64,000 nucleotides of DNA from an uncultured Methanosarcinaceae archaeon (GCA_963847185.1 CAWJYV010000005.1:61216-125215), one strand, 5' to 3'. Shown: positions 29,672 to 63,575, numbered from the stretch's first letter. Program-made: numbers and translations. Notes: a model not told the origin generated them from the sequence alone.

Positions 29672-30043
29672 ATGGAAGAGGGCAAAATGAAGAACACAAT
29701 CACGAGAAGTTTTGAGCTTCAGGACTACAAAATAGAAGGAACAGAACTCTCCGGTTTCTGGGCAGATTTACAGAGCAAGGAAGAACTGATAGTTGAGGTA
29801 AACTACAGCCCTGAAAACAAAAAAGCCTTCAGTCCCGAAGAAACGAAAACTCTTGTCCAAAAAGCCTGTGAGAAGTGTGAAAGCTTTGAAGCTCAGCTTC
29901 CTGAAAACATAAGATGTGAAGCCACCTTCAAAAACTTAAGCGAAAAGGTTTACAAAATAAATGAACCTGATTTTGAGCTGGAACCCAGGGAATTAGAAGA
30001 GCTTCAGGTTGCTTACCGTTTTTTTGTCGAGTATTATGTTTGA
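29672..30043 (+). CDS. Hypothetical protein
   Basis: 123-aa acidic ORF with coding-like composition. Confidence 0.75.
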   Translation: MEEGKMKNTITRSFELQDYKIEGTELSGFWADLQSKEELIVEVNYSPENKKAFSPEETKTLVQKACEKCESFEAQLPENIRCEATFKNLSEKVYKINEPDFELEPRELEELQVAYRFFVEYYV

Positions 30044-47956: not shown

Positions 47957-48813
47957 CTTTCTAGCAATTTAGCTATCTTTACGAAAACAGCAAAGTATTT
48001 AACTATTAAAAAATATTTTTTATGTAGGTGCAAATCCCTCTCGCAGCGAACAGACAATACATCAATTTACCCAAATGTATCATCATCAGAAATATAATCC
48101 GGGATTTGCACTGCCTCCTCTTTTTGGAAACCCAAATAATAATAAATTTTAAATAGTTTCAAATGTATCACTATTTTGACGCATTAAGGCAAACGTCATT
48201 GTTTGCATCAGAAATTTCCAGGTGGGAGTCAGCTCTCCCACTTGTCTACTACTAATAATTCTTTTCGCCAAGGGCTTGTTTTCGAGAAACAGTATTTACC
48301 CCAGATTCATCCATTGAAAATGCAAAAAAGATATAAATTGGAGATATCTCTCAATTCAAGAGGTATCTGGTTGAATCACTGGAATTGGGGCAATTATTAA
48401 CAATTGTTAATTATTTGTATATGTTGTGACTGATGATCTCAATTTTGAACATGTAAACGGTGTAATCAAAGCTGCGCTGGTGCATCCTGCTGCAAGCAAT
48501 GGAGTATATTCGCTCCAGCCTTTCATATATTCCAAGAGCTTGGCCCTTACTTACTCATTTTAATTGCGTTGAAGTCTTCTGAGATATTATTTGGTCCATC
48601 TGGCTACGAGCGATAACCCTGGCCATTGTACGTGGCTTCTGGAAATATGTGCGTGGGAGATGGGGGATATCCATTCCTGGTCACATCACTCAATGCCTTC
48701 AGCAAATGGAGGTACTTTGAGAACGTCACACTCTTCAATAAACAAGATAAGTTTATTAACCGTAGGCAATTATTGGAACTGAAAATCACTTATAGAGAAT
48801 AGCCACCTCTGAG

Positions 48814-49104
48814 ATGAAAACAATGGACTCAATGGAAAAAATCTTTGGAAAAACCGCACAAATGACGGTACTTAAGAACCTTATCGAAAAACAGAACGAA
48901 CCAGCCTACCTTTCAGGAATAGCTGAAGCAACTGGACTATCACATTCCAGCGTATCAAGGGTTATCGCACCTCTGATTTCATCAGGTGTTGTTCAGGAAA
49001 AAATGCTAGGAAAACAAATTCGACTTTTCCAGCTCAATATGGAAAGCGAAGCGGCAAATGTGATAGTTGATTTTTACCGTAAAATCAATGAGGCAGTAAA
49101 TTAA
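48814..49104 (+). CDS. Winged-helix regulator, paralog of 17336-17626
   Basis: MEKIFGKTAQMTVLKNLIE, YLSGIAE.TGLSHSSVSRVI and LGKQIR.FQL.MESEA are shared with the 17.3-kb gene. Confidence 0.87.
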   Translation: MKTMDSMEKIFGKTAQMTVLKNLIEKQNEPAYLSGIAEATGLSHSSVSRVIAPLISSGVVQEKMLGKQIRLFQLNMESEAANVIVDFYRKINEAVN

Positions 49105-49265
49105 GTTTTGATATGAAGGTGAGGGAAATTCAATTTCCCACCTTATCTTTTTGATTCTGTCTCCAAGCTATTGACAAAAAGCTTGGAGTTTATTTAAAAA
49201 CAGTAGCTTTTCTGCTTATCCTAATCTTAATGATAAGCTACTGTTGAGAGGGTTATATATATTGA

Positions 49266-49382
49266 TTACTTCCCCTTCTTTGCTGGCTTGGATTCTTTCT
49301 TCATAGACTTCTCTGCTACTGGAGCTTTTGCTTTCCCACAAGCAGCTCCTGCCTTATGTGCATCATTTATTGTTTTCTGCAT
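49266..49382 (-). CDS. 38-aa Lys/Ala-rich small protein (below ORF-track cutoff)
   Basis: GAGGTG SD, then MQKTINDAHKAGAACGKAKAPVAEKSMKKESKPAKKGK*. Confidence 0.65.
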   Translation of the reverse strand: MQKTINDAHKAGAACGKAKAPVAEKSMKKESKPAKKGK

Positions 49383-49868
49383 AATTAAACACCTCTTTGA
49401 ATATTTTAGTAATTATTTAAGTAAACTATCTTAAATGTATATATAAGTTTATAACAAGAACATTAATTCGATCAGATAACTATTATGTGGATAGTTAAAA
49501 AAAATATATAGAGACTTGGCTATATAATATCGAATTCGCGAATTATTCTTTTATGATATAAATTAATGATATGCCCATTTTAATTTCGTTGTGGAGCCGT
49601 CCGGGATATAATTTCCATTTGCTACGAGCGATAGCCCTTGCCTTTGTACGTGGCTTCTAGGTGTGGAAATGAGGAATAGAAGTATCAAAAGAAGCTATGC
49701 TTGGTTCCCGTCCAGACTATCTGGATTCGAAAAAGGCTCTATAGAAATGCTTTATATTCTATTTACTCAAAAAATTACAAAAAATTGAAGTATAAAAATG
49801 TCCCTTATTTTTGTCCCCACAAAAAACTAGGAGCAATCCATATTGTCATCAAATAAATATATTAAATT

Positions 49869-49986
49869 TAGGACTTACTACTTGAGTTTATAAGTTGGCA
49901 GCATTAGACCTTCAACAGTTCAAATTGTAGATTTAAACAACAACGTTTATTGTGCTTGATTTCATACTTTCAAGTGCGTAGTCCTA
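49869..49986. mobile_element. 118-bp MITE with TAGGACTTAC TIR
   Basis: TAGGACTTACTACTTGA ... TCAAGTGCGTAGTCCTA; homolog of 42799-42916. Confidence 0.75.
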
Positions 49987-50764
49987 AAAGTCTCAATTAG
50001 GTCCGTAAAAATTTCTAAAGTTTAGTATCCGCCGCCACGGCGACAATTCCCAGAGCACCACCAGCAGTGTCTACGTCTATCAAATCTGCAGTAACTATGC
50101 CACATTTGCATTTCCTCCAAATTTTTACTTAATGAGATGCAATTGTGAATGGAGTTTTATGAATATCGCTTTCTTAATTCAATGTTTTTTCGATTCACTT
50201 CTCGTCAGCAAATATTATTGGTAAATTATTTGTATATTGAAAACTTCTATCTACATTTTATCTGCTGATAATTTACATGCCTATGAGAGTGATTTCACAA
50301 TTGCTCACTCAGATAATATTCATCATGAAACATAAAATCTATAGAAATATAATTAAGAATTCTATAATAGTTGGAAGCTGACTTTATTAGTTAAATTTCA
50401 CAAATGATTCAGCACGTTGGCATTTTATAAAGTTTCCTGTTTTATAAATAACGAAGAATAAATAGATTCAATAAACCTATATTCATGCCTGGCATCCTAA
50501 AGATTCTTACCCGAGCAATAGCCCTGGCTTTTGTACGTGGCTTCTGGTTAGGTAGTTATAGTTTGGATCGTATTCGTTGTCATAATATCCCAGAAGATTC
50601 ATATAAAGATGGAAAGTCTTGTTTTATTCTTTACACAGTTTTTAGTAAAAGCTCTATATTTCATCCGATTTTCAGGTAAAAATTTGCTCAAATTAGCAGC
50701 AAAACTGTCCAAAATGCACAGGTTTTACTCTAAAACCTGTGCATTTTTCAATCATCTTCAATAC

Positions 50765-51000
50765 CTATTGTGTGAAGTATTTTGCCCATCCAGAGCACTT
50801 ATGCTTGCTGATGGGAGTAATAAAGCTCATGACAGTATAATCCCAAAAGGAGTGATCTCTCCCGAAAATCCTGGCCATTTCCTCAAAAGCCGGCATTCGA
50901 TTCGGACATATAAACAGACACAAGTACCTCGTACAACTATCGAGTCGATCTTAGACATTGTCCGGTATGCCCCCTTTGGTGGAAATTCCCAAATCCTTGC
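50765..51000 (+). pseudogene. Internal fragment of a ferredoxin-nitroreductase
   Basis: CEVFCPSRAL, FLKSRHSIRTYK and ILDIVRYAP.GGNSQ; lacks both the N-terminus and the C-terminus. Confidence 0.7.
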
Positions 51001-51004
51001 ACTT

Positions 51005-51811
51005 TTCAGAGATAGCATCAGCGATATTCCTTAATGAATCTGAGTCAATTTCTGCATACTTCAAACCCGAATATTCCCATTACCTTGTGGTACATACTCC
51101 TGTAAAATATAAAGGTCCTAAAAATAGAACAGAGTGGAACCTGCGGTTTTGTGGAGATGTCGGAGTTTCAGTTGTTGAACTTTTTACAGTAAAAGCTTGT
51201 ATTGCTTATGTAAAAGGGTTGATGGCAGTTAATGGATCAAAAATCTATGCAATCCTTCCCTATACATCAATAGATATAGAAAGAGCGGAAAAGGCAAAAT
51301 TTCCTGAAGATCAGATCTCCCGCGTGCGGGCAAGAGTACTACCTCCTGTACTTCGAGAAATAAAAGGGGAAATGATTCTGGATATAGGCAGTGGGTTTGG
51401 AACGCTAACTCTTGAAATTGCAAAAAATAACCCTGATTCAAAGATCTATGGTGTCGATATTCACGACTCTCATACTGGTCAGGCACAAATGAATGCAAGG
51501 ATTCTTGGTGTACCGAATCTAGAGTTCAAGACAGGCAGTATATATTCACTTCCTTTTAAGAGTGACTCTATGGATGCTGTTACCTGTTTTTACATGCTTC
51601 ATCACCTTGAAGATTTAAAACTAGCCCTGATGGAAATCAAGAGAGTATTAAAAAAGGTGGGATATTAACAGCAGTAGAGCCTCTTGAACATCAATATAAT
51701 CATGGACCTCATCTCTCTCAAATTGAATGGAAAGAACTTTTTGAAAAAGTAGGCTTTTATGTGGAGACTCAAAGCTATGAAGGAGCAATAGCCATGAAGG
51801 CCAAAAAGTAG
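51005..51811 (+). pseudogene. Class I SAM methyltransferase, 5'-truncated, frameshift near 51655
   Basis: ILDIGSGFG, GSIYSLPF and LHHLED...EIKRVLK; the shifted frame continues GGILTAVEP...MKAKK* to 51811. Confidence 0.75.
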
Positions 51812-51958
51812 GTATACTATTTTAGATCATAGTTCAAACACTTAGTCTCCGATAATGTTTGGAAATAAGGATAGAAAGACTGGGGATTGGATCTATGTTC
51901 TATTGTTTGATTCTTAACTTTTTCATTAATTGAGTCAATGATTGAATAAATTGATATG

Positions 51959-52086
51959 AAGCCGATCCCAAAACTCAAAATTGCTTCTCTGAATCCCGTA
52001 TTCCGAATAATCAATATAGTTTCGATCATGAAAATAGTTATGAAACTTTACTGATTTGAGAATAAAATTGGTTTTGGGATGAGCTC
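51959..52086. mobile_element. ~128-bp MITE, copy 1
   Basis: AGCCGATCCCAAAAC ... GTTTTGGGATGAGCTC; near-identical copies at 53050 and 57369. Confidence 0.88.
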
Positions 52087-53049
52087 ATAGTATATACACA
52101 AATACTCAATGGCGTTAACAGAAATTATGCTTTTCCTGGATTTCTCGTCTTTTTCACTGCTACCTGATTCGTAGGAAATGATCTTTGGCAGTTTTCACAC
52201 CGGTAATTACGCTTTTTCGTGTTTTTAGTGATATTCGGTGAATTGCAAAACGGACATACTTTTATTGTACATGTGGTAGTCATTAGATAAGCTCCAAAAT
52301 AAACTTAAACACTTGTTTTTAATTCTCTTCGTCTTTCCTGCTCTTTTATACTCTTCAATATCTCTTTTCTTTTTATCCTTACCCCTAACTGTCCAGACAG
52401 CTTCATCTTTTGAAACTTTGTCCTGCAGGACTTTAATACCATGTTTCGTGTATATGATAGAGTTCATTACACCAGTGTCTCTTAGAGGCTGTCTTAAAAT
52501 TCAAACCATTTCTACATTTAGATAATGGAAAACGTTAACTTTAAATTCATACCTAAATTTTTTCAGCAATTCAGGAACATATTGACTTTAAGATAGTATT
52601 TTATCCATAGGATTTACGTATCTACGATAAAATCGAATTGCGTATTTCCACCACGCACTAAAAGGCTGTCCACAATTCAATCGAGGTAGAAACTTTCCAT
52701 CCTCATACGAGAGATATGCCATAGCTTTTAGATTAGCTTCAGGTTATGTGCTTAAAGTGCATGAAGGGCGACAAAAAAGAAGCTATGCTTGGTTCCTGTC
52801 CAAGTCGCTACAATGCCTTCGGTAGAAATGCTCACCCTACCAGTTTTCTTAATATCTCGAGCCGAAGGATGGTCCAAATACTCAAAACCCTGATTTTTGG
52901 GTGGAAATAGGTTGCGATACCTGCAAAAATGAGTTAATTTGACAATGTCAAGTTAGAATTTGAAACTCAGTTATGAAAATTTGACCTGAAATAAATGTGT
53001 TAGTTTAACCATAGTAGTTTCCGTATTATACGTAAATTCCATATAGAAT

Positions 53050-53177
53050 GAGCCGATCCAAAACTCAAAATTGCTTCTCTGAATCTCGTATTCCGAATAA
53101 TCAATATAGTTTCTGATCATGAAAGTAGTTATGAAACTTTACTGATTTGAGAATAAAATTGGTTTTGGGGTGAGCTC
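53050..53177. mobile_element. ~128-bp MITE, copy 2
   Basis: Near-identical to 51959-52086. Confidence 0.88.
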
Positions 53178-53225
53178 TATAATAAAAGAAGCAATAACGT
53201 GATAGTATACCTTGATATCTCAAAA

Positions 53226-53950
53226 TTAAGATTTTTTTCTTTTTCTCTTCTCAGGCGTCACAAGTTCTGTTAAAAAGAATCCAAATGCTGCGAAATCCTT
53301 AATATCTAGTTTTGAGAACTCTCACCGGAAGAAATTGCTGGAATAATGAACCGGAAGAATTCACTGGTGTACTGCTCGTAGCTGAATCCCTCCGCCTCAA
53401 TCACTAATTTCCATTTATTTTCCATGGAGAGGATACCCATAAAGGATATCATAAGATACATCGAGGTCAGGAATGGATCAAGATCGGCCCGGATTGTCCC
53501 ATCATCGATGCCCTCCTGGATCGCATCCCGCAGGATCATACGGCAGGTACCATACCCCTTTCCAATCTCTGAGGTAGATGGGTTTTCTTTGGAAAAACGT
53601 TCAGATCCATAAAAGTGGATCAATCGAAGATAATCCGGGTATTCCTGTGAAAACTGGTAATAGGCCTGGCCCATCAGGGCTACTTTGACAATTCCGGGAG
53701 CCTGTTTTCCCATGCATTCCAAATATTTTTCCTTAAGGATCTGGATACCACGGAGAACAATAGTAGCGAAAAGTGCCTCCTTATTTTTAAAATATAGATA
53801 TAAGGTAGCCTTATTCAGTTCGACATCTCGGGCGATATCATCCATGGACACATCTTCGTAACTCCGGGAAAAAAAGAGACGCTCGGCTGCATCAATGATC
53901 TCGGTCTTTCGCTGTTCCTTTTCTCGTTGTCTTCTATCGGAAATTCCCAT
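53226..53950 (-). CDS. TetR/AcrR-family regulator (probable frameshift near 53310)
   Basis: IIDAAERLF..SYEDVSMDDIA..LNKATLYLYFKNKE. The frame ends at TAG 53306, but a shifted frame reads LDIKDFAAFGFFLTELVTPEKRKEKKS*. Confidence 0.9.
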
Positions 53951-54054
53951 TTTTTCACACCATCTAACCCATATTTTGATAATCACTGTCAGTTATATGA
54001 ATTAAGGAATGAATGTATTCCAATTTTCCGCTTTTACCAATTGGGATATATTCA

Positions 54055-54855
54055 TCAGATAAAACATTCAGGCTCCTTTCGTTGGCTATAGAGCGTATGG
54101 AGACGCACTGATGCGTCTTTAACCAGCCCGGGTTTCATCGATCTGGCATTCTGCGGGCAGTTTTTGATACACGCACAGCAGGTAATGCATTTTTCCGTAT
54201 CAATCAAACGGGAATTTTCTGCATCAACAGCACCAACAGGACATTTATCTGCACAGATTCCACACTGTGAACACTCATCGCTGACTGCGATAAAATCAAC
54301 ATTCCATAACTTCGAATCTCCTCTATAGGGATAAATGCCAGGCACATATACATCAGAAATTTGGGAGGTTAATGAAATGGATTGAAGTTTTTCACGTATT
54401 TTCTGTCCAAATACTTTTGCATGGTTCAAATCATCTTCACCGGGGCGTCCTTGAGCTGTTGGTGTCTCGGAATTTGAGAATGAATGTTCCCCGATATATG
54501 CTGCACAGGCAATGGGAATACACCCACATTTCATTACAATATTTTTTAGTTCGAGTAGTGCATCGTCATATACACGATTCCCATAGACAACAATACAGAT
54601 GGTAGGGGTATTATGAGCTTGAATTGCATTCAGCCATTCAATTAATAATGCTGGCACTCTCCCCATATAAACGGGAACTCCAACTACAAGCAGTTCATTT
54701 TCCGAGGTCAGTAATGGTTGTTTTCTTGCACTTTGTTTGGTAATATCAATTAATTCCATGATGCTTGGATTAATACCATGCGCAATGCCCTGAACAACCG
54801 CTTTTGTTGTTCCAGTAGGTGAAAAATAAACTAATTTCGCAGATTCCATTTTCAT
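54055..54855 (-). CDS. EFR1-type flavodoxin/ferredoxin fusion protein
   Basis: YFSPTGTT, VPVY.GRVP, VYGNR.YDDAL, IGEHS and two CxxCxxCxxxCP motifs. Confidence 0.9.
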   Translation of the reverse strand: MKMESAKLVYFSPTGTTKAVVQGIAHGINPSIMELIDITKQSARKQPLLTSENELLVVGVPVYMGRVPALLIEWLNAIQAHNTPTICIVVYGNRVYDDALLELKNIVMKCGCIPIACAAYIGEHSFSNSETPTAQGRPGEDDLNHAKVFGQKIREKLQSISLTSQISDVYVPGIYPYRGDSKLWNVDFIAVSDECSQCGICADKCPVGAVDAENSRLIDTEKCITCCACIKNCPQNARSMKPGLVKDASVRLHTLYSQRKEPECFI

Positions 54856-55549
54856 TTTGTTTACTCCATCAATTGTGTATGAATTTACAAAGAATGCCTT
54901 TCATTCGATTTCACTCTCACGAATATTTGGATTCTCATCTAACCATTACCGGCTTAGAATTTTACTCACTATATCCCTAGTACAAACCTGTATCTGAGCT
55001 GTTGTGCGTATTGTCGATATCCTGAAAATTCTTCTTGCAGAATCCTATCTTCAAGACTCGTTCTCATCTCTCTTCAATTGGGAGGCATAATCTCAAGGAT
55101 TCTGCCCGGAAACAGGCTCAATAGAATATTGTAACTTATAGTTATGTTATAAATGATGGTTATCTTATAACTTTCGGTTATTTAATAGCCATTAGTTGAG
55201 TATTCGAATCTCCATTCTCTTTATCCTCCCCTGTTTGTTCACTTTTAGGGTGGTATACAACACGTCAAAAAGAAAGATACAAAATTTGCTACAACATTGG
55301 AAAGAATGGCGAATATCAAGAAATAGATCTTTTGAAGATTGATTTTAAGATACACTATGAAGTTGATTTTTTTGAAAGAGGTGGGACGGTAAGAAACGAG
55401 TGAACTAAGCTGGAAGAATTGTTGGTGGCATAATGCGACGAAGCTGAAAAATAATTTTTTTTGTTAAATCTTGCCACTATTGCCCTACTAATAAGATTGC
55501 TGATTAAACTCAGTCAAGAATTCTATCTTAGATTGGAATAGTAATCTCA

Positions 55550-55789
55550 ATTAGGGGCTTTCACCTTTAGTCGCTGAATGTAAGGTAATTAATTGTCTTA
55601 CCATTCTTCTTATGGATCTTCTGATACCGTGACATTGCAGCGGAAACGATAGTATATCGAATACCTGTCTTTTTTTCGATGTCGCGTGTAGTTAATGGTT
55701 CTTCTGAGCCGATAAGAGCATCTAATATTCAGAACTTTAGAAAATTAGTTTTATAAGAATAGCACTCGAAGAATAGCACTCGCAACCAT
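55550..55789 (-). pseudogene. Decayed wHTH DNA-binding protein
   Basis: ILDALIGSEEPLTTRDIEKKTGIRYTIVSAAMSRY with an internal TGA and a duplicated GAATAGCACTCG near the start. Confidence 0.55.
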
Positions 55790-56079
55790 ATTATCACCTA
55801 AAGTTTTATGTCATAATAAATATCTGATGCCACGATAATAAAGGTTTGTTCGTTTCAATATGTATATACCATAAAATGCCCTATACCATAAAATGTTATT
55901 TTCGGGATATGTTTGATCCCTCTACCTTTAATATATCCCGAACCTGTTTATGGGCTTCACAGAATTTGGGAGATAACATTTTGCCTTAGAAGGGACTAAA
56001 CGCTTGGCTGCGAGGCTTAGCGTGGGTTGTGTAATAAGTATGTAGAATAAATTTCACTTTAATAACTAACTATGTCTTA

Positions 56080-57213
56080 GAAACTTACGCATTTGCCTGC
56101 TTTGCAGGCAACTTTTTAATTTTTTCGATTTTTAGGTTAAGTATAGATTGGATTTCTTATAAATTGACTAACAGCATTTCTTGTAATGTTCAACTTTGTT
56201 TCAAACCATGTAATCCTGTTTTTATTCTTTGAATTTCAAATCTTAGAAATGCTCTTATTGCCATCATAATATGTCTCTCTGCACATTTTTTCTTCTTGCC
56301 TGACAGCGTTCTACTCCACAAAACTGTTTTATTCCTCTATGATACTCTTCAATTTTCCAGGCTTTTTTCCCTAACTCTTTCCTTTTTTCTTCTTGCATAT
56401 CCAGTACATCTGTAGCCCAGTATTGCGTGTCTCCGTCCGTGGAAACTATCCGAAATACCTTAATAAAGCCATATTCTTTCAGATGAACTGTCATTCCTTC
56501 TGGTGGAATAGTTAACAATTCAATTGCTACATTACCAGTCTTATCAGGGTTAACTAACCGGTTTTTCTTCAACCTTGTTAACCAGTGCCATCCTTTTTTC
56601 CTGATTGTCTTTGAGATTCTTTATGCTTGAATACCATGTATCAAACAGAACAAATTCTGGTCTAAAACCACGTTCTTCTGCCTTATTTAGCATATCAAGG
56701 AAGTGATCGTTTTTTGTTTTTCGTCAGTATCTATATCTAAATTCTATATCAACAGGAATTATAGCATCATAATATGCCCATACCCCTATTTAAGATTATT
56801 AGTCCGTTGTCAATCTGATGATGTTTACCACTCCATTGCCTGTAAACAAGATCGATGTGTTTGGAATAAGGTTTATCGAGAACAGTATCATCGATAATAA
56901 GAAAGCCAGTTTCAGGAATGACAAAAGTCTTGACTTCGTCCCATAAAGCCTCCGTTTCCGGAGGCTGCCTTAGAAGAAGACGAGAAAAAGAGTCATGAGC
57001 ATGGACTATTAGAGTCTATAAAACTGCACTTAGAAGCTTCAGTACAGCTGAAGACGCGAGAAGAAGCAATGAGAAAGTTGATATAATCAAGTTCAGTGCA
57101 TTTAGCAGGATTTATTTAATTCAACTCAAAGATTTTTTTTGATTATATTGCATATATTATATTAAAAGAAGTATTTTAATATGATTTACAAAATGCTTAA
57201 ACCGCGTAAGTTC
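56080..57213 (-). mobile_element. Decayed IS701-family insertion sequence
   Basis: Frameshifted transposase ~56137-57116: NPAKCTELDYINFLIAS, GFLIIDDT, FDTWYS and WKIEEYHRGIKQFCGVERCQAR. Imperfect TIRs AACTTACGC / GCGTAAGTT. Confidence 0.88.
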
Positions 57214-57368
57214 AATATTATTTACCAAGGAAATTTTGATTCTTCTTATTCCGATCATTATGTTCCGATGATTAATATTCTTATATAAATATTATAATTA
57301 CCTAATCAAAATAGATAACAGGAGTGAAAATGGGCTCAGCATTGAAATTTTCGAAGCCTTTTATTAGC

Positions 57369-57495
57369 GAGCCGATCCCAAAACTCAAAATTGCTTCTCT
57401 AAATCCCGTATTCCGAATAATCAATATAGTTTCATCATGAAAATAGTTATGAGATTTTACTGATTTGAGAATAAAATTGGTTTTGGGATGAGCTC
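57369..57495. mobile_element. ~127-bp MITE, copy 3
   Basis: Near-identical to copies 1 and 2; flanked by AGC/AGC, a possible 3-bp TSD. Confidence 0.88.
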
Positions 57496-57851
57496 AGCAA
57501 AAAAACAGAAAGCTGGCGACCTTATCCCACATAGAGTTTTTTGTAGTTCTATGGATAAGTGTACTAAAGGCTTTGTTTTTTATTAGTTCTCTTTTTCTTC
57601 TTCACTGAGACTTATAGGTAATTACCTTTTTAGCTGTATTTTACCCTCTAATTAGTTAACGAGGGTGTTCAATAAACCGCTTATATTATACAGGAGCTAC
57701 ATTGAGTACAATCCCATCCGTAATGTTTAATGTAAATACTAAAAAAGCGATTAGATTTATATCTCAATTAGATATTCTCCTGACTTTGTTTCCAATATCA
57801 TATATCCAGATTAATGACTAAGAGCTGTCAATTGGCGTATAATGAAATCGG

Positions 57852-57966
57852 GGTCGTGTACGTGAGTCATTGATCAAACCTGAAAAAACGAGTACGCATA
57901 CGGCGTTTGAGGAAAATACAAAGAGATCTCTGTGCTCATGGTTTTCAGTAACTCACGTACACGACC
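57852..57966. mobile_element. 115-bp MITE with perfect 16-bp TIR
   Basis: GGTCGTGTACGTGAGT ... ACTCACGTACACGACC; diverged homolog at 59790-59906. Confidence 0.8.
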
Positions 57967-58005
57967 GCTATTTTATTTTAGAATAGTTTTCTTTGCTAGC
58001 GTTAC

Positions 58006-58338
58006 TCACTCTATTTTAACATTCACTAAATGTACAGGGGTCTTTTTATAAGGTACTGTGACCTTAAGCAAACCATTTGAATAGTTAGCAACTGCTTTTT
58101 CAGGTTCTACCGGACAGCAAAAAACATAGCTATCCGCATATTCAAAATCACCTTTAGTGGCTCGTATATAAAAACCATCTTCACTGAGCTTGAAGGAGAT
58201 ATCCTTCTTTTCAACTCCAGGAAGAATTACTTCAACATTTACGTTCTCAATATTGTCGTCTGGATAGATACAAACATCTGGTGATAACCTCAACACGCCG
58301 CCCATAGTATTTTCTCCCGCCATAATATTTTCCTCCAA
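58006..58338 (-). CDS. Hsp20/alpha-crystallin family protein
   Basis: LPGVEKKDI and A.A.YSNGLLKVTVP. Confidence 0.88.
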   Translation of the reverse strand: MEENIMAGENTMGGVLRLSPDVCIYPDDNIENVNVEVILPGVEKKDISFKLSEDGFYIRATKGDFEYADSYVFCCPVEPEKAVANYSNGLLKVTVPYKKTPVHLVNVKIE

Positions 58339-58745
58339 ATGAAATTGCTAATTAGGATATTTATATTTTTGTGTTTATTTAAGTGAAGTGTTGACGTTAA
58401 AACGGCAACTGTAGTTTTTATTTTGAAATTGGTATTCCGACAATATCTAGTTGATATTATATAAGTTGACATTTATATAACTTCATGATATCTGGTTGAT
58501 TGAGAATAAAGTGTCAGGCGCTGGGGAACCTGACATAGCTGATAGATTGAATTAATCGAATAATTTGATTAAAAGCGTGCATCGGACAACCAATAAACAA
58601 TAGTATGGCAGATGACTAATTAACACTCACCATGCCTATAATTTCAAAAATTTTGAGAATCAGTAGAGCTCTAAAATCTGGATTTACGTTTGGAATCAAG
58701 TTTCTGGGTTGAAATCAAGTTTATTGACCTTGAGGAGGAGTTTCT

Positions 58746-59637
58746 GTAAGTAAAACTGCACTTAAATCATATATTACTTCAGGTCACAGTGCCTGTCCGG
58801 GTTGCTGTGACATTTTTGCTGCAAAATTCACACTGATGGGAGCAGGTCCCAACACCATAATTGTTAACCCCACTGGCTGTCTGGAAGTCACAAGCACACC
58901 CTTCCCGCTGACTTCTTGGCAGGTTCCCTGGATCCACTCGCTCTTTGAAAACGCAGCATCAGTGGCTTCAGGTATAGAAGCTGGTCTGAAAGCTCTTGGA
59001 AAAAAGAAAGATATCAAGGTTATAGCTATCGGAGGTGACGGCGCTACAATGGATATAGGATTTGGAGCTATTTCGGGTGCTTTTGAGCGTGGTCATGATT
59101 TCACCTATATTTGTATGGACAACGAAGCCTATATGAATACAGGAGTCCAACGCAGCAGTGGAACTCCCTTCGATGCCAGCACAACGACAACCCCGCCAGG
59201 AAAAATTTCCTTTGGGAACCCACTACCTAAAAAGAATATGCCTGCCATTATGGCAGCCCACGGATCTCCCTATGTAGCCACAACCTCAATAGGTTTCCCA
59301 CGGGATATGATGCGTAAAGTCAAGAAAGCCGCAGAAGTCGTGGGTCCTACCTACATCCACTGCACACGCTCCCTGTACAACAGGCTGGGGCTTTGACACC
59401 TCTAAGACTCTGGAAATTGCCAAGCTTGCAGTTGAGACCTGTCTCTGGCCCATGTACGAGATGGAAAATGGAGAAATCACCCTGGTTAGAAAGGTCAAGG
59501 ATCCAAGACCGGTCGAGGAATACCTCAAAGCTCAAAAACGCTTCAAACACCTCTTTACAATGGAAGGCGGCGAAGAAGAAATCAAGAAGATCCAGGCCAT
59601 GGCAGACTGGAACATAAAGCATTACGGGCTTCAGTGA
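58746..59637 (+). pseudogene. porB: Orphan pyruvate:ferredoxin oxidoreductase beta subunit (GTA at start position, frameshift near 59360)
   Basis: [30 protein letters not shown] and [13 protein letters not shown]; the shifted frame gives APCTTGWG...[13 protein letters not shown]. Confidence 0.88.
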
Positions 59638-59789
59638 AAACTGAAGCTTTACTTTTTTCTTCTTTTTTAGATTTTACCTTTTTAATATTATAATTTTTTC
59701 GGGATCTTACTTTTTCAAGGTTTTACTTTTCGTCTTTATTCTGTGTTTATCCAAATTAGGTCGTGTCCTTTAGTAATTGACGTATTTTT

Positions 59790-59906
59790 GGTTGTGTCCG
59801 TGAGTTATTGATCTATTCTGAAAAAGCGAGTACATCTTCAGCATCTGAGTAAAATGAAGAGAGGTTCTTATGCTTATGGTTTTTTCAATAACTCACACCT
59901 ACTACT
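59790..59906. mobile_element. Diverged copy of the 115-bp MITE
   Basis: GGTTGTGTCCGTGAGTTATTGATC ... AATAACTCAC; the interior aligns with 57852-57966. Confidence 0.7.
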
Positions 59907-60094
59907 GCTCTTTATTTTACTCGTTTTAATTGCGTTGTGGAGCCTTTCGGGATTATTTGGTCCACCTTATCCCGAGCGATAGCCTTGGCCTTTGTACGTG
60001 GCTTCTAGGTATATGTGCGTGGGGACGAGGGATAGAACCGCGCAGCCTTCAACAATTATCCCAGAAACCTGATATTAATGTCGAAGTCTTCGTC

Positions 60095-60580
60095 TCATAT
60101 ATTAATCAAATTGGGTTCTAATTTGATTACCCGAACAATATGAAAAGTAATTGTTCCAAATATCACAACCAAAAATACAGGAGTAAAGTATTCACTTAAT
60201 ATTTGAGCTTTTGATGTTTGGACTGTAATATAAGCGAATGAGATTGTTGACTCAAGTTTTAACAAAAGGAGCATGTTTTCAATATATTGAGATCCCTGCC
60301 TCCTTTTTTCGTAAGTTATTTTTACAGGCTGATTCCTCATTTTAGGACAAAACGACGCAAAAGTCAGCAGTATATATAAGAATACGCAAGCAAAGGCAGG
60401 GATAAATATAATACTGTTTTTATCACTCCAGCTATCTATCTGCCCTTGAAAATTAAAATGTGAAGGCATTTGTGCAGGCATCCGACCCCAGTTGATTGTC
60501 AAATAGGCAAGCAATGACAATAGAATTACAAGCGTAAATACCTCCAGAACGATTTGTATATTTGTGTATTTTTTTCCCAT
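60095..60580 (-). CDS. DUF1648-family membrane protein
   Basis: W..MP..MPSHFNFQGQIDSW signature; four TM segments. Confidence 0.85.
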   Translation of the reverse strand: MGKKYTNIQIVLEVFTLVILLSLLAYLTINWGRMPAQMPSHFNFQGQIDSWSDKNSIIFIPAFACVFLYILLTFASFCPKMRNQPVKITYEKRRQGSQYIENMLLLLKLESTISFAYITVQTSKAQILSEYFTPVFLVVIFGTITFHIVRVIKLEPNLINI

Positions 60581-60681
60581 GTCGTATATCCTATCAAACC
60601 AAATTTTCTTATATTATTTGTAATTTAGTTTTCTTGAGGTGGATATTTTTTTGCCAAATAGTTTTTATATCTAAAAAAGTT

Positions 60682-61167
60682 TTAGTATTGAAGCCTTTCC
60701 GCCAATAAATCGTTTTCTAGCATGGCGATATCTTTTTTTACATATTCTAATAATACCTTGCTCTTGGTTTTATAGTTCTCTGGGTCAAGGACGTAATTAT
60801 TTTGCTGGAGTATTTCAAGTTGTTTTCTTGTTTCTTCTGTTGCCAAATATTTGTACTTTGTGGCATTCTCAATATCCTGTATAGAAGGAATAGGTATCTG
60901 TATCCGTTCTATAAAATCATTTAGTGAATAATAGAAGAGGTTGAGACTTTCTCTTGTATCTCTTATTTTTTGCTCTGTTTCTATTATTGTGAGTATCTTT
61001 CCGGTTTTTTGCAATGATCTTAGTGACACTAGTAGTGTTGCTGCAGCTAATAGCGATGCGGTGGTAGATAGTAACGGTATGCTTCTCGCGTCTATTGGCA
61101 CAAGTAGGATGAGAAAACATAATAGTATGTCGAGAATCATTAAAAACACGAATCTTCTATCATTCAT
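60682..61167 (-). CDS. Hypothetical protein, two N-terminal TMs plus helical domain
   Basis: 161-aa ORF. Confidence 0.65.
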   Translation of the reverse strand: MNDRRFVFLMILDILLCFLILLVPIDARSIPLLSTTASLLAAATLLVSLRSLQKTGKILTIIETEQKIRDTRESLNLFYYSLNDFIERIQIPIPSIQDIENATKYKYLATEETRKQLEILQQNNYVLDPENYKTKSKVLLEYVKKDIAMLENDLLAERLQY

Positions 61168-61284
61168 TCTGTATCTTCCTTTACATTGTGTTTTTCTGAA
61201 GTCATTTAATATATTGAAACTACATATAAAAGTTATTATATAGGTATATTTAATGATTTAGAAAAGTAGAAAGCTCTTTAATCA

Positions 61285-61437
61285 TCCTACATTCCGCAGA
61301 TGTACAAAGATGTAAAATTTATTTACCAATTTGCCTTATTTTGTTTCATCGTTCCATTAAATGTGAATTCAATTTTTAACCTACTGCCACATTGAGAAAA
61401 TAGATGACGTTTTTGTGTACATCTGCGGAAAGTGGGA
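61285..61437. mobile_element. ~150-bp MITE-like inverted-repeat element
   Basis: TCCTACATTCCGCAGATGTACA ... TGTACATCTGCGGAAAGTGGGA; a related right end ACATCTGCGGAAGGTAGGA lies at ~25592-25610. Confidence 0.7.
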
Positions 61438-61902
61438 TCATTATCGTAATTTGTTTTTCAGACTGTGCTATTTTTTTCACCGGGATATATTTGGTCCCTT
61501 TGGCTGCGGACGATATCCCTGGTCTTTGTACGTGGCTTCAGGTATATGTGCGTGGAAATGAGGGATAAACGTACCGCATCAGCTTTCCACAACTATCCCA
61601 GAAGCTTGGCACATCCATTCACCGCTTTAATCGAACATGAATGTGTGGATATTCTCGGTCTGGAGTAATAAGAGAGATCATGTGCGATTTTTTCGACTTT
61701 ATTCCTGAACAGGACTTTATACTTTATGATTCGAGAAAATACATTATCATTAAAAAAGCATGAGAAAATATATAAAATGAAACCCGAAGCGTAGTCGCAA
61801 TTAGCTTACGAGCTCATCAAGAACGAAGCTTGACACATTATGACATAAAAGGAAAGTGTTTTTCTAATTTTTAATCAATTATTAGTTAATTGTTGCAATA
61901 CT

Positions 61903-62232
61903 TCATAATCGAGATAAAGCGTCATTTTGCGGTGCTATATCTAGCTTATCACTAACCTTCATAACAATTTCTTCCACATCAACTTCATCCCAAGCAACAA
62001 TTACAAAGTTTTCACGCGAGTCATCGAAGAAAATGAAGCAGCCTTCATTTATATTACACTTATCTATCTTTATCTCATTGACCTTTTCTTGATCCTCAGA
62101 ACTAGCTATTCTAAGGAAATGTGTATGCATGGTTTTTGACCAAACATGCCAGTTTTTCTCACTCACAGGATGCTTCTGTGAGTGTTGATGCAATTCATCA
62201 AGGTATTTTGTGTTGTTAAACGCTACTTGCAT
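61903..62232 (-). CDS. Hypothetical protein
   Basis: 109-aa ORF between repeat copies 5 and 6. Confidence 0.6.
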   Translation of the reverse strand: MQVAFNNTKYLDELHQHSQKHPVSEKNWHVWSKTMHTHFLRIASSEDQEKVNEIKIDKCNINEGCFIFFDDSRENFVIVAWDEVDVEEIVMKVSDKLDIAPQNDALSRL

Positions 62233-62902
62233 AATATCACTGGCTAAACTATTTCGAAGATGTTATTTAAAACCTTCTGTGTTTATTCAGACTGACTTCA
62301 ATCAGGCACTATAATTTGTTCCAAATCTCAGTAAGGCTGGAGACTACCCGCTTTAATTATGCTGTGAAGCTGTCAGGGATATATTTGTTCACTCCCAAAC
62401 AATAGCTCTAGCCTTTGTACGTGGCTTCCAAGTATATGTGCGTGGTTAGTATTTGAAGGGATAGATATACTGCGCCAGCCTTCCACAATTATCCCAGAAA
62501 CCTCTCGATGTTCCAGATCTGGAACATCGAGGAAAAATAATCGGATGGCTATAAATAAGTGATGATATAGAGTATTTATTTTACTTGTTTTAATTGAGTT
62601 GTATAACTGTCCGGGATTATTTGGTTAAGCTTATCCCAAGCGATAGCCCTGGCCTTTGTACGCGACTTCTAGCTACCCAGACACAGTACGGATGGAGTTT
62701 GCATTTCACGTTTATCCAGAAGATTATGACAAAAAAGAATATTGAATGTAGAGTCTTAGGAAAGGTTGGATTGTGGGGATAGAGGAAGAAGGAAAGGGAT
62801 TATCACTGCAGCCCTCAAAATTAACTTTTAGATCAGCTAAAAATGAAGGCTTAATTTAAGCCTCCTCTTTTTATTTTCCTTTTCTCTTCTTATCCTGTTC
62901 TT

Positions 62903-63010
62903 TTATTTTTTATCTGGTTCCTTAACTTCCTCAACTGGTTTTTTTATTTTGTCGTTCTTTTCCTTATCTGCCTTATCTCTTTTTGCTGCCTTCTGTTTCT
63001 TGGTCGCCAA
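62903..63010 (-). CDS. 35-aa Lys/Asp/Glu-rich small protein (TTG start)
   Basis: MATKKQKAAKRDKADKEKNDKIKKPVEEVKEPDKK*; AT-rich TATA-like sequence upstream. Confidence 0.5.
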   Translation of the reverse strand: MATKKQKAAKRDKADKEKNDKIKKPVEEVKEPDKK

Positions 63011-63305: not shown

Positions 63306-63575
63306 ATGCGGAACATTCCTGCGTATATAAAGAATGAAATGATTATGGAATGCCCTATACTCTCACCTAGTAATAAACTGGCAAATAATTATAGACGAGG
63401 TTTAATAGAGCCCTGTCAATTTTATACGAACTATTATAATGAAATGAAGAGTCCAATTTGTCAAGAATTAATGAAATCTATACTAAGTATATCTAAAAAC
63501 TATGATATTTATATTGTCAATATTAATAAAGACGCAAGATTATTGCTGGTAGATATATTGAAGAATATAAAATAA
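63306..63575 (+). CDS. Hypothetical protein
   Basis: 89-aa ORF; the frame stays open upstream to ~63222 behind AGGAG, so the true start may be lost or non-canonical. Confidence 0.5.
   Translation: MRNIPAYIKNEMIMECPILSPSNKLANNYRRGLIEPCQFYTNYYNEMKSPICQELMKSILSISKNYDIYIVNINKDARLLLVDILKNIK

Follow-up and report, generated by a model that had tools for sequence, protein, structure and literature searches.

Same-direction clusters of an old mosaic intergenic repeat in Methanosarcina

The seven repeats in the stretch of DNA analysed here (64,000 nt from an uncultured Methanosarcinaceae archaeon, referred to below as the window) are members of an old, non-coding, intergenic repeat family of Methanosarcina, whose copies lie in clusters that each point in one direction. 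The family is described here by its anatomy, copy number, clustering, co-orientation, intergenic position, age and spread through the genus. As to its history, the explanation that we favour, tentatively and at somewhat below even probability, is that of an ancient mosaic intergenic repeat that multiplied head to tail and was later split by insertions; the origin by head-to-tail amplification and the splitting by later insertions are the parts that we infer.

The initial annotation described six exact copies of a 14-mer and one variant, all on the + strand, and a motif scan of the window reproduces every position. The exact 14-mer is at 48626, 49644, 50531, 59992, 61526 and 62415, and a variant with two mismatches is at 62656, giving spacings of 1018, 887, 9461, 1534, 889 and 241 nt. 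With up to two mismatches allowed, the window holds eight matches where 0.13 are expected, and none of 100 shuffles gets to eight; the eighth, a two-mismatch site at 29918 on the - strand, is probably a chance match. Similarity around each site spans about 160-175 nt (alignment A1, mean column identity 61%). An HMM built from the seven copies, which was also used with nhmmer for the genome-wide scan, finds no match in the window before 48547, in agreement with the initial annotation, in which none was noticed before 48 kb. The repeats had been sized at about 40-160 bp; they are real, but the full unit is longer and modular, at about 270 nt (alignment A2, unit HMM).

In order, the unit consists of a terminal direct repeat, a 28-bp palindrome or hairpin, a TATA-like box, a conserved block A that ends in the 14-mer, a variable block B, and a second copy of the terminal repeat. 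The terminal direct repeat is about 20-33 nt long and has the form ...CTTCCACA..TATCCCAGAA. In the unit HMM, the terminal repeat and block A are the main starting points of copies, and most ends fall right behind the 14-mer or where B stops. The terminal-repeat motif has only a hairpin after it in ten cases, only a block A before it in eight, and both in five, as is expected of units bounded by direct repeats and joined head to tail. Being non-coding, intergenic and multi-copy, with modules in a fixed order of which some are optional, the family is a mosaic intergenic repeat, a term used here in a working sense (REP/BIME/BOX-like) that implies no shared ancestry with the bacterial families.

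All seven window copies are on the + strand. Copy c1 (48547..48719; nhmmer E 1.5e-35; alignments A1 and A2) has block A with the 14-mer and a diverged block B, is without the hairpin and TATA-like modules, and has a diverged remnant of the terminal repeat immediately 5' of it, at about 48515-48540. In c2 (49567..49724; nhmmer, repeat comparison), block A is followed by a block B with a short deletion and then by a second recurrent short module, of AAAAGAAGCTATGCTTGG type. The most diverged copy is c3 (50457..50622; nhmmer, alignment), of which only block A's 3' half and the last part of B can be recognised. Blocks A and B are both present in c4 (59914..60074; nhmmer E 8.5e-43), which has the top nhmmer score among the genome's copies, in c5 (61447..61615; nhmmer, alignment A2), the 5' end of which is diverged, and in c6 (62342..62502; nhmmer, unit HMM), which is the first unit of a head-to-tail pair. 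Finally, c7 (62578..62734; 14-mer scan, nhmmer) has block A with the variant 14-mer and a mosaic 3' part. Between c6 and c7 lies module H, a perfect 28-bp palindrome (62504..62531, no strand) in which 11-nt arms flank AGATCT, identified from the sequence and from family-wide compensatory changes. It is followed by module U (62532..62577, + strand; sequence, alignment A2), a purine-rich stretch with the TATA-like GGCTATAAA about 26 nt 5' of the block A start of c7. The absence of terminal inverted repeats noted earlier stands, the repeat search having found no inverted-repeat pair bracketing any window copy, but it does not extend to the interior, where the palindrome is the sole inverted repeat. 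Both the palindrome and the TATA-like module are absent from many copies, including in each case five of the seven in the window.

Short stretches of block A are 90-99% conserved in copies that as a whole are only about 75% alike, which suggests, on sequence comparison, that the copies still act as a candidate binding or recognition site; conserved blocks in copies this old argue against pure junk. Pairing in the palindrome is also kept, with 83.5% of cells paired vs 78.2 +/- 1.2 in shuffles, and 24 cells are changed on both sides vs 13.2 +/- 2.5, neither value being reached in any of 500 shuffles. Such compensatory changes in the arms fit a hairpin better than one fixed protein site. Both observations are in favour of a candidate reading that we nevertheless consider unlikely, in which the units are small transcription units: they would be promoter-leader modules or make sibling small RNAs. 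On this view the palindrome would be an operator or RNA hairpin, module U would be a putative promoter (which we take it to be from general knowledge of archaeal promoters), and the TATA-like box would give a predicted non-coding RNA of about 150-170 nt from block A, the conserved blocks being its functional part. In keeping with this, 13 copies begin at the block A start, about 26 nt 3' of the purine-rich stretch and GGCTATAAA, all 41 loci in the genome are intergenic, and at six of them a winged-helix gene of one of two families (14 genes genome-wide) follows within about 200 nt. One of these is the Mre family (NF053756, 146 bits). The winged-helix genes might be regulatorily linked to the repeats, but they already have AT-rich upstream regions of their own. 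The frequent absence of the TATA-like module weighs against this reading, as does block A itself, where an RNA consensus-structure test gave no consensus pairs in 97 aligned matches, and the energy in 17 full copies is -3.4 kcal/mol on the + strand and 0 on the - strand. No Rfam model was matched at the gathering score, and even at E up to 5 no match fell on a repeat. Nor is there an orientation rule, the gene 3' of the repeat being on the same strand at 21 and on the opposite strand at 19 of the 41 loci. The earlier suggestions of a repeated structured RNA and of a regulatory leader are both unsupported, the first by the missing pairs in the block that carries the 14-mer and the second by the orientation of the genes. 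Separate small genes also give no account of a co-orientation that holds over 110 kb.

Another reading, close to refuted, sees in the conserved stretch a relic of a protein gene's 3' end, lying on the opposite strand, where a frame ending ...THIYLEATYKGQGYRS-stop crosses the 14-mer. Many copies keep this frame open, and variation is greatest in the third-position phase (0.156 vs 0.116 and 0.090), but the periodicity is not significant (p = 0.12), stops occur at several codons, indels in block B disrupt the frame, and open frames around the matches in 59 genomes are at most 136 aa. The search for a longer parent protein found none, a weak test with a conserved stretch of only about 17 residues.

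The array in the window is clustered and co-oriented, as first described, but it is one of several clusters rather than a local feature: the HMM of the seven copies has 51 matches genome-wide, on five of the ten contigs, with none on the 0.94-Mb and 1.17-Mb contigs. The 54 matches in this genome collapse into 41 loci, none of which is within an ORF of at least 100 aa. The loci form six groups on five low-GC contigs, each in one orientation without exception, with inter-copy spacings from 23 nt up to 37.6 kb. A complete relative has 43 matches in six clusters of 23, 10, 3, 1, 4 and 2, each uniform in direction, and 41 of the 43 copies are at 0.83-1.53 Mb, distant from cdc6 at 3.02 Mb. The clusters occupy a variable portion of the chromosome, distant from the origin, poor in genes and low in GC. 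Among 59 Methanosarcina genomes the family is present in 34 and absent from 25; three of the carriers have 38-44 copies, and the others 1-12. A four-unit array is collinear in two species, partial units included, and four repeats lie within segmental duplications along with the 5' regions of paralogous histidine-kinase genes. No copy was found in the viral contigs, plasmids or phages searched.

One-directional polar sequences are found near bacterial termini. By analogy, the units might be a chromosome-level polar motif, read one way relative to replication or segregation. This would give one-way clusters and, as found in both genomes, a - cluster after a + cluster, but we consider it very improbable. 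In each of the two genomes AT skew changes sign at the cdc6 origin and so reports replication direction. The raw skew (+/-20 kb) has the sign expected if the unit points with the fork at 34 of the 41 loci and in six of eight groups, and the six clusters of the relative all have the expected sign, including two that break the simple replichore rule. However, when corrected for gene strand (third-codon-position AT skew, + genes vs - genes), the skew is concordant at only 22 of the 41 loci and in four of the eight groups. The values are tiny at most loci, and the units, which by eye are T-rich on their own top strand, may add to the raw skew where they are densely clustered. In the relative, the main skew switch is at about 0.56-0.57 Mb; it lies some 260 kb away from any cluster rather than between the + and - ones. 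Most of the chromosome, like the 25 non-carrier genomes, is without copies.

The identities first proposed for the genes between the repeats mostly hold. Directly 3' of c1 is a 96-aa winged-helix gene (48814..49104, + strand; HTH_IclR, E 9.9e-5), and this layout, a repeat and then the gene, is also found in two other species. The 9.4-kb cargo interval has genes on both strands (50958..59396; domain search, repeat search), comprising methyltransferase, TetR_N, Fer4/flavodoxin-like, weak HSP20 and TPP_enzyme_C genes, together with a multi-copy element of 1.13 kb (56083-57211) and three MITE-like copies. The MITE-like family of the window has terminal inverted repeats of about 17 nt (D4/D5, I14). 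A DUF1648 gene and a 161-aa ORF (60095..61167, - strand; ORF calls, domain search) run opposite to the repeats. A 109-aa orphan ORF (61903..62232, - strand) forms with its repeats a repeat-orphan-repeat block that is common to another species at 89-94%; neither this ORF nor the 161-aa ORF has a family match in the domain search. That the cargo is heterogeneous, lies on both strands and includes an IS-like element and MITE-like copies speaks for our favoured explanation.

The copies are old. Their pairwise identity of about 75% is no higher within genomes (means 0.74 and 0.78) than between them (0.75), and neighbours within 1.5 kb are as diverged as distant copies (0.66, n = 12, vs 0.67, n = 562). 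The best pair is only 94-96% identical, and with near-identical copies absent, nothing points to recent activity. The one clearly orthologous pair is 82.6% identical, below its flanks at 88-94%, and overall constraint is therefore weak.

The uniform phase in which copies start and end, and the divergence of neighbours, which matches that of random pairs, could equally come from repeated independent insertion beside an existing copy, and point to a site-specific process more than to plain duplication. Putative tyrosine-recombinase sites would then be provided by the units, or by their terminal repeat or palindrome, in an att-like accretion platform, where DNA circles carrying a unit would integrate beside a resident unit in a fixed direction, giving co-oriented arrays with unrelated cargo; this would resemble tandem att/dif integration, not an integron. 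We hold this to be possible but not likely. The unit has defined ends with a terminal direct repeat, and the head-to-tail order is strict. The palindrome has an 11-6-11 geometry that may be compared with Xer/dif core sites, and the covariation of its arms suggests a hairpin rather than one fixed protein site. All PF00589 matches in this 99.8%-complete genome are one family and lie on contigs C1 and C4; as first stated, there is no recombinase in the window. Three copies on C1 (6.4-7.8, 61.4-62.7 and 179.0-179.9 kb) are within or beside repeat clusters, in the repeat-bearing part of that contig, which also counts against our favoured explanation. A 92%-identical orthologue is within the largest repeat cluster of the relative, and an orthologue of at least 91% identity is present in all three genomes with at least 38 copies but in only one of the other 56, where a stop interrupts it. 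This correlation is not independent, since close kinship may link the three high-copy genomes. The gene for the 434-aa recombinase belongs to a duplicated unit of 2 kb, close to genes of provirus or plasmid type, and an apparent 14-mer-like motif beside it is not kept at the orthologous loci of two other genomes. Strict co-orientation and clustering between unrelated short genes are borne out, as is the proximity of a tyrosine recombinase at genome level, but the co-location may simply reflect a shared 'junkyard'.

A 1.2-kb indel with an Mre-family gene is located inside a repeat, and in a third species blocks are shuffled with ends at repeats. Repeat-plus-gene blocks are arranged differently between species, with ends at or inside repeats in all three cases examined; these count against the favoured explanation and agree with the recombination reading of the initial annotation. 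However, the positions within the unit differ, and the ends of homology blocks show no enrichment at repeats (5 of 66, vs 6.25 +/- 2.4 expected). All of these rearrangement comparisons are between species; the differing block arrangements and the location of the recombinase family are some hints of a recombination role. The viruses, plasmids and phages without copies also argue against circles carrying units.

Under the mosaic-repeat explanation that we favour, an ancient head-to-tail amplification of units, earlier than the divergence of the sampled species, would have taken place in the variable origin-distal region, and such amplification gives arrays of uniform direction. The arrays would later have been split by inserted accessory genes, IS elements and MITEs and eroded by small deletions, and segments of repeat plus neighbouring gene would have been duplicated and shuffled. 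If this is true, the 'cargo' accumulated around the repeats and was not captured through them.

Archaeal CALIN, clusters of attC sites without an integrase, have been reported (PMC9668308); Methanosarcina is unmentioned in the main-text passages searched, the genome list of that paper being in its supplements. As in the CALIN described there, co-oriented repeats lie between short unrelated genes and no integrase adjoins the array. The integron analogy is otherwise unsupported. What defines attC sites is an ssDNA hairpin fold, with little sequence conservation (PMC9668308), whereas the units here are conserved in sequence and have no hairpin along their whole length: nine folds (seven window copies on the + strand, two on the - strand) gave z from -1.07 to +1.32, none being more stable than shuffles. 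The genome's only tyrosine-recombinase family is not of IntI type (41 bits vs a TIGR02249 cut-off of 265) and scores 86 bits vs archaeal XerA, where the cut-off is 220. A cassette layout of mostly co-oriented single ORFs, each with a site after it and sites less than 4 kb apart, is contradicted by cargo on both strands, by gaps of 9461 nt in the window and 37.6 kb in the genome, and breakpoints are not at a fixed position. MITEs, as described in PMC11602168, are likewise non-coding, intergenic, multi-copy and lineage-variable, but the Methanosarcina unit has no terminal inverted repeats or target-site duplications.

Links to other classes were not supported either. For IS200/IS605-derived elements and REP/RAYT, the Y1_Tnp genes proved to be carried by an element (about 730 bp) that does not resemble the unit, and two TnpB-like matches (TnpB/omega RNA) are on other contigs, away from repeats. 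The initial annotation was right that this is not a CRISPR array, the units being 160-270 nt long, about 75% identical and irregularly spaced.

Three further systems offer comparisons. Sibling small-RNA gene arrays of bacteria consist of head-to-tail units, each having a box that resembles a promoter and a short block of high conservation, as do the 200-270 nt units here, but in this family block A has no conserved RNA structure and many copies are without the box. Xer/dif tandem integration and plasmid dif modules have same-direction sites and unrelated cargo with no dedicated local integrase. The likeness extends to the 28-bp palindrome, which has the Xer/dif-type layout (arms of about 11 bp, spacer of 6-8 bp), and to the Xer-like recombinase nearby, but here the palindrome is fully symmetric, its arms covary between copies, it is missing from many of them, and there are several clusters rather than one site. 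Mosaic intergenic repeats of the REP/BIME, BOX and Correia/NEMIS types are scattered in both directions in bacteria. The present family shares with them short modules in fixed order, some optional, a strictly intergenic position, tens of copies, an internal hairpin and a lineage-specific copy number. It differs in having no linked REP-associated Y1 transposase and in being archaeal, clustered, perfectly co-oriented within each cluster, bounded by a terminal direct repeat and arranged in head-to-tail arrays.

The repeats are genuine, and they belong to a family that stands out in part of the genus. A scan of the window located seven copies of the 14-mer between 48.6 and 62.7 kb, every one on the + strand; six are exact and the seventh differs at two positions. 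At up to two mismatches there are eight matches against 0.13 expected, a number reached in none of 100 shuffles, which confirms the same-strand repeats reported in the initial annotation. Around each site some 160-175 nt are alike among the window copies (c1 to c7), and most of the genes that had been called between them were borne out by Pfam. The window is the final 64 kb of contig C5 (assembly 4.04 Mb in 10 contigs), and the array therefore lies at a contig end. Metagenome contigs from four runs, placed on 59800-63000, are stacked on the repeats and end there; none spans the stretch, and the joints listed are repeat-to-repeat with short sides. No RNA run is among the sequencing runs listed as containing the sequence.

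Other repeated sequences occur in the window. A MITE-like repeat of about 140 nt, unrelated to the unit and ending in inverted repeats about 17 nt long (GAGC..GATCCCAAAAC / GTTTTGGGAT..GCTC), is present at 51960-52102, 53050-53193 and 57370-57511; the 9.4 kb that separate c3 from c4 hold all three copies. Another repeated element, about 1.13 kb long (56083-57211) and left here with short ORFs only, has eight more copies at 93-96% identity on C1, C4, C7, C8 and C10. A weak match to DUF488 is seen in an ORF following c7 (63306-63575), and a DUF488-like gene in a genome with few repeat copies (locus L052:3680-4081) ends 20 nt ahead of block A.

An HMM built from the seven window copies gave 51 matches in the genome (25 on C1, 6 on C3, 4 on C4, 7 on C5 and 9 on C10) and none on C2, C6, C7, C8 and C9, the two largest contigs being among these. 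The G+C content is 0.378-0.392 in four of the five repeat-bearing contigs, compared to 0.40-0.41. A longer model produced 54 matches, which merge into 41 loci, all of them outside ORFs of at least 100 aa. These form six groups: 14 loci at the left of C1 (+), 4 at the right of C1 (-), 6 on C3 (+), 5 on C4 (-), 6 on C5 (+) and 6 on C10 (-). Within each group the orientation is the same without exception. The direction of the unit is not tied to that of its neighbours: at 21 loci the gene downstream shares its strand, and at 19 it is on the opposite one. Outside the window, the final ~56 kb of C10 (~740-796 kb) has a G+C content of 0.69, compared to 0.33-0.44 elsewhere in the genome; a chimeric join, contamination and a strongly foreign island are all possible explanations.

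The order of modules in the unit is constant, as seen in an alignment of 22 copies and in the unit model. It begins with a terminal motif (...CTTCCACA..TATCCCAGAA), followed by a 28-bp palindrome with 11-nt arms flanking AGATCT, a purine-rich stretch containing GGCTATAAA, block A (about 100 nt, with the 14-mer at its end), and block B, which closes with the same terminal motif, this being common to adjoining tandem units. The motif was found at 10 unit starts (hairpin after, no block A before), at 8 unit ends and 5 times between units; 30 additional loose matches are solo remnants or chance. The segments of block A (AGCGATAGCC, the 14-mer and GGGATATATTTGGTCCA) differ in 1-14% of copies per position, while other aligned positions vary in up to 38%. 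An alternative form of the core, with TAGATTAG in place of GTACGTGG, recurs in several copies from four genomes, for example at C10:35212-35365 and at loci L050:323-426 and L028:6255-6365. A constant crossover just past the 14-mer was considered and rejected: most of 88 distinct copies share the 17-nt start of block B, and the apparent other continuations are mostly deletion variants or of the type carrying an Mre-family gene (4 copies).

Within the window the palindrome and TATA-like module are found only in the c6/c7 pair. Across the 22 copies, which come from several genomes, 83.5% of palindrome cells are paired, compared to 78.2 ± 1.2 in shuffles, and 24 cells are changed on both sides, compared to 13.2 ± 2.5. 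The observed pairing or double-change value was reached in none of 500 shuffles, and slid controls pair at 28-45%. These figures refer to 22 of 28 regex candidates, five without a palindrome and one truncated copy having been left out; when pairs are counted that show a double change in any copy, the result (6 of 13) is not above shuffles. The pairing of the palindrome is maintained via compensatory changes. Within a 469-aa ParB_N-domain gene (C1:57709-59118, equivalent to L040:17710-19119), 2.8 kb from the intact tyrosine recombinase gene described below, there is an exact 27-nt match to the hairpin module; this coding sequence may be where the palindrome came from, or the match may be a site in the gene.

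It is possible, if unlikely, that the units are a family of small transcription units. A structured RNA, which the initial annotation had offered as an option, has to be set aside for block A: RNAalifold finds no consensus pairs in 97 matches (79 distinct, the duplicate rows coming from overlapping loci of one genome), 17 copies give an energy of -3.4 kcal/mol when read on the + strand and of 0 when read on the other, and Rfam and tRNA-gene scans gave nothing. An opposite-strand coding remnant, coding-like by eye, has no significant periodicity (p = 0.12); its open frames are all of 136 aa or fewer across 59 genomes, and no longer parent protein was found, in what is a weak test with only about 17 conserved residues. 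The copies are not bracketed by terminal inverted repeats, as a MITE would be. The Y1 transposase and TnpB genes are unlinked to the repeats, which disposes of an IS200/IS605 or TnpB element, and a virus or plasmid site is rejected with no similar sequences in viral contigs, plasmids or phages.

Exact-pattern scans named Methanosarcina isolates and Methanosarcinales MAGs as carriers of the family. A sequence-only covariance model of block A, run with stricter filters and a limit on the candidates scored so that all counts are to be read as minima, finds it in at least 34 of 59 genomes of the genus at E ≤ 1e-5, with at least 44, 40 and 38 copies in three genomes, at least 6-12 in five and at least 1-4 in the other carriers; the complete 3.69-Mb chromosome of a relative appears under two handles (G031 and G056). 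This chromosome has 43 matches in six clusters, at 831-883 kb (+, 23 copies), 992-1034 kb (-, 10), 1124-1126 kb (+, 3), 1511 kb (-, 1), 1530-1534 kb (+, 4) and 2184-2188 kb (-, 2), with cdc6 at 3.02 Mb. The clusters occupy the origin-distal part of the chromosome. Their polarity with respect to replication is unproven. The AT skew changes sign at cdc6 in both genomes. At 34 of the 41 loci here, and around all six clusters of the relative, the raw local skew is what units pointing with the fork would give. However, after correction for gene strand just 22 of the 41 loci and 4 of the 8 groups agree, and the top strand of the unit, T-rich as judged by eye, may account for some of the raw signal. 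The relative has its main switch in skew at ~0.56-0.57 Mb, and not between + and - clusters.

The copies are old. Adjacent copies are no more alike than distant ones (0.66 vs 0.67), which also argues against recent tandem duplication; similarity within genomes (0.74 and 0.78) matches that between genomes (0.75), and the best pair does not exceed 96%. In addition, a four-unit array, partial units included, is collinear in this genome and in the relative, and the segments of block A vary little. Searches for empty sites, using a 15-kb repeat-bearing stretch against five carriers, found scattered multi-copy pieces only and no collinear loci, as did an 18-kb stretch of the window against 30 relatives. 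The most economical reading, which we hold tentatively as plausible but short of probable, is of an ancient mosaic intergenic repeat that would have been amplified head to tail, the arrays having subsequently been fragmented in a fast-changing region of the chromosome.

The repeats adjoin two families of small winged-helix regulators. A 132-aa Mre-family gene (NF053756, 146 bits) is found directly after block A in 4 of its 7 copies, and two low-copy genomes have a member of the Mre family some 1 kb downstream of a block A. With seven genes here (83-89% nucleotide identity, on C1, C3, C4, C5 and C10, e.g. C1:38837-39230), this family of regulators, known from the control of methanogenesis, is markedly expanded. 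MreA, a relative, has been described as a global regulator of methanogenic pathways (PMC3419521), and the passages on MreA in that paper make no mention of such a repeat. A 96-aa winged-helix gene, unrelated to the Mre family, lies less than 200 nt after a repeat in 2 of 7 copies, one of them at c1, and a third has a repeat just downstream.

The genome, which is 99.8% complete, contains a single family of Phage_integrase matches, with three copies on C1 (an intact 434-aa gene at 61369-62673, one broken and one truncated) and a fragment on C4. The C1 copies are all within or beside repeat clusters, and a 92% orthologue is inside the largest cluster of the relative. Orthologues of at least 91% identity are found in the three high-copy genomes and one low-copy genome, which may be close kin. 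The protein is Xer-like, with scores far under the cut-offs of the XerA (best 86 bits vs 220) and integron-integrase models; a model search of all contigs saw no canonical XerA. These locations hint at recombination, as do two further comparisons, and would fit a platform of fixed direction served by this recombinase. In the relative an extra 1.2 kb with an Mre-family gene is present within block B of an otherwise orthologous repeat, and in a third species two blocks of the window, the repeat plus 96-aa winged-helix gene and the repeat plus 109-aa orphan plus repeat, recur at 82-94% identity in other order and direction, with homology stopping at the repeats. However, the breakpoints are at different positions within the unit, and homology-block ends are not enriched near repeats (5 of 66, compared to 6.25 ± 2.4 expected), a test of little weight in either direction, since most of the ends belong to kinase paralogues where no repeats occur. 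Moreover, a motif resembling the 14-mer, 115 nt beyond the recombinase gene, had looked like an att site but was dropped, as two other genomes do not conserve it at their orthologous loci. The gene is near provirus- or plasmid-like genes (a ParB_N-domain protein and a DDE transposase), in a neighbourhood that may be no more than a place where mobile DNA collects. On balance we regard such a platform as unlikely.

It is worth adding that Methanosarcina genomes have a large variable region with many accessory and regulatory genes, which the family marks with 41 loci here; across the genus, over half of the genomes sampled carry it. If the units are recombination or protein-binding sites, they would offer a practical way into the construction or organisation of this region. 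Even as inert relics they would still be of use in assembly and strain comparison, because the contigs of this assembly break in these clusters. Full-text searches of articles outside subscription journals, main texts only, turned up no account of such a repeat family. The integron-like array proposed in the initial annotation fails its defining tests: there is no attC-like single-stranded hairpin, the seven window copies folding no better than shuffles (z from -1.07 to +1.32), and the recombinase falls far below the integron-integrase threshold. A bolder form of the platform reading, and a doubtful one, is that the units are recombination sites of an archaeal gene-accretion system unlike integrons, in which the 434-aa Xer-like recombinase would insert unit-bearing DNA beside resident units in one direction; in some Methanosarcina chromosomes the variable region far from the origin would in this way be built from shuffled repeat-plus-gene blocks.
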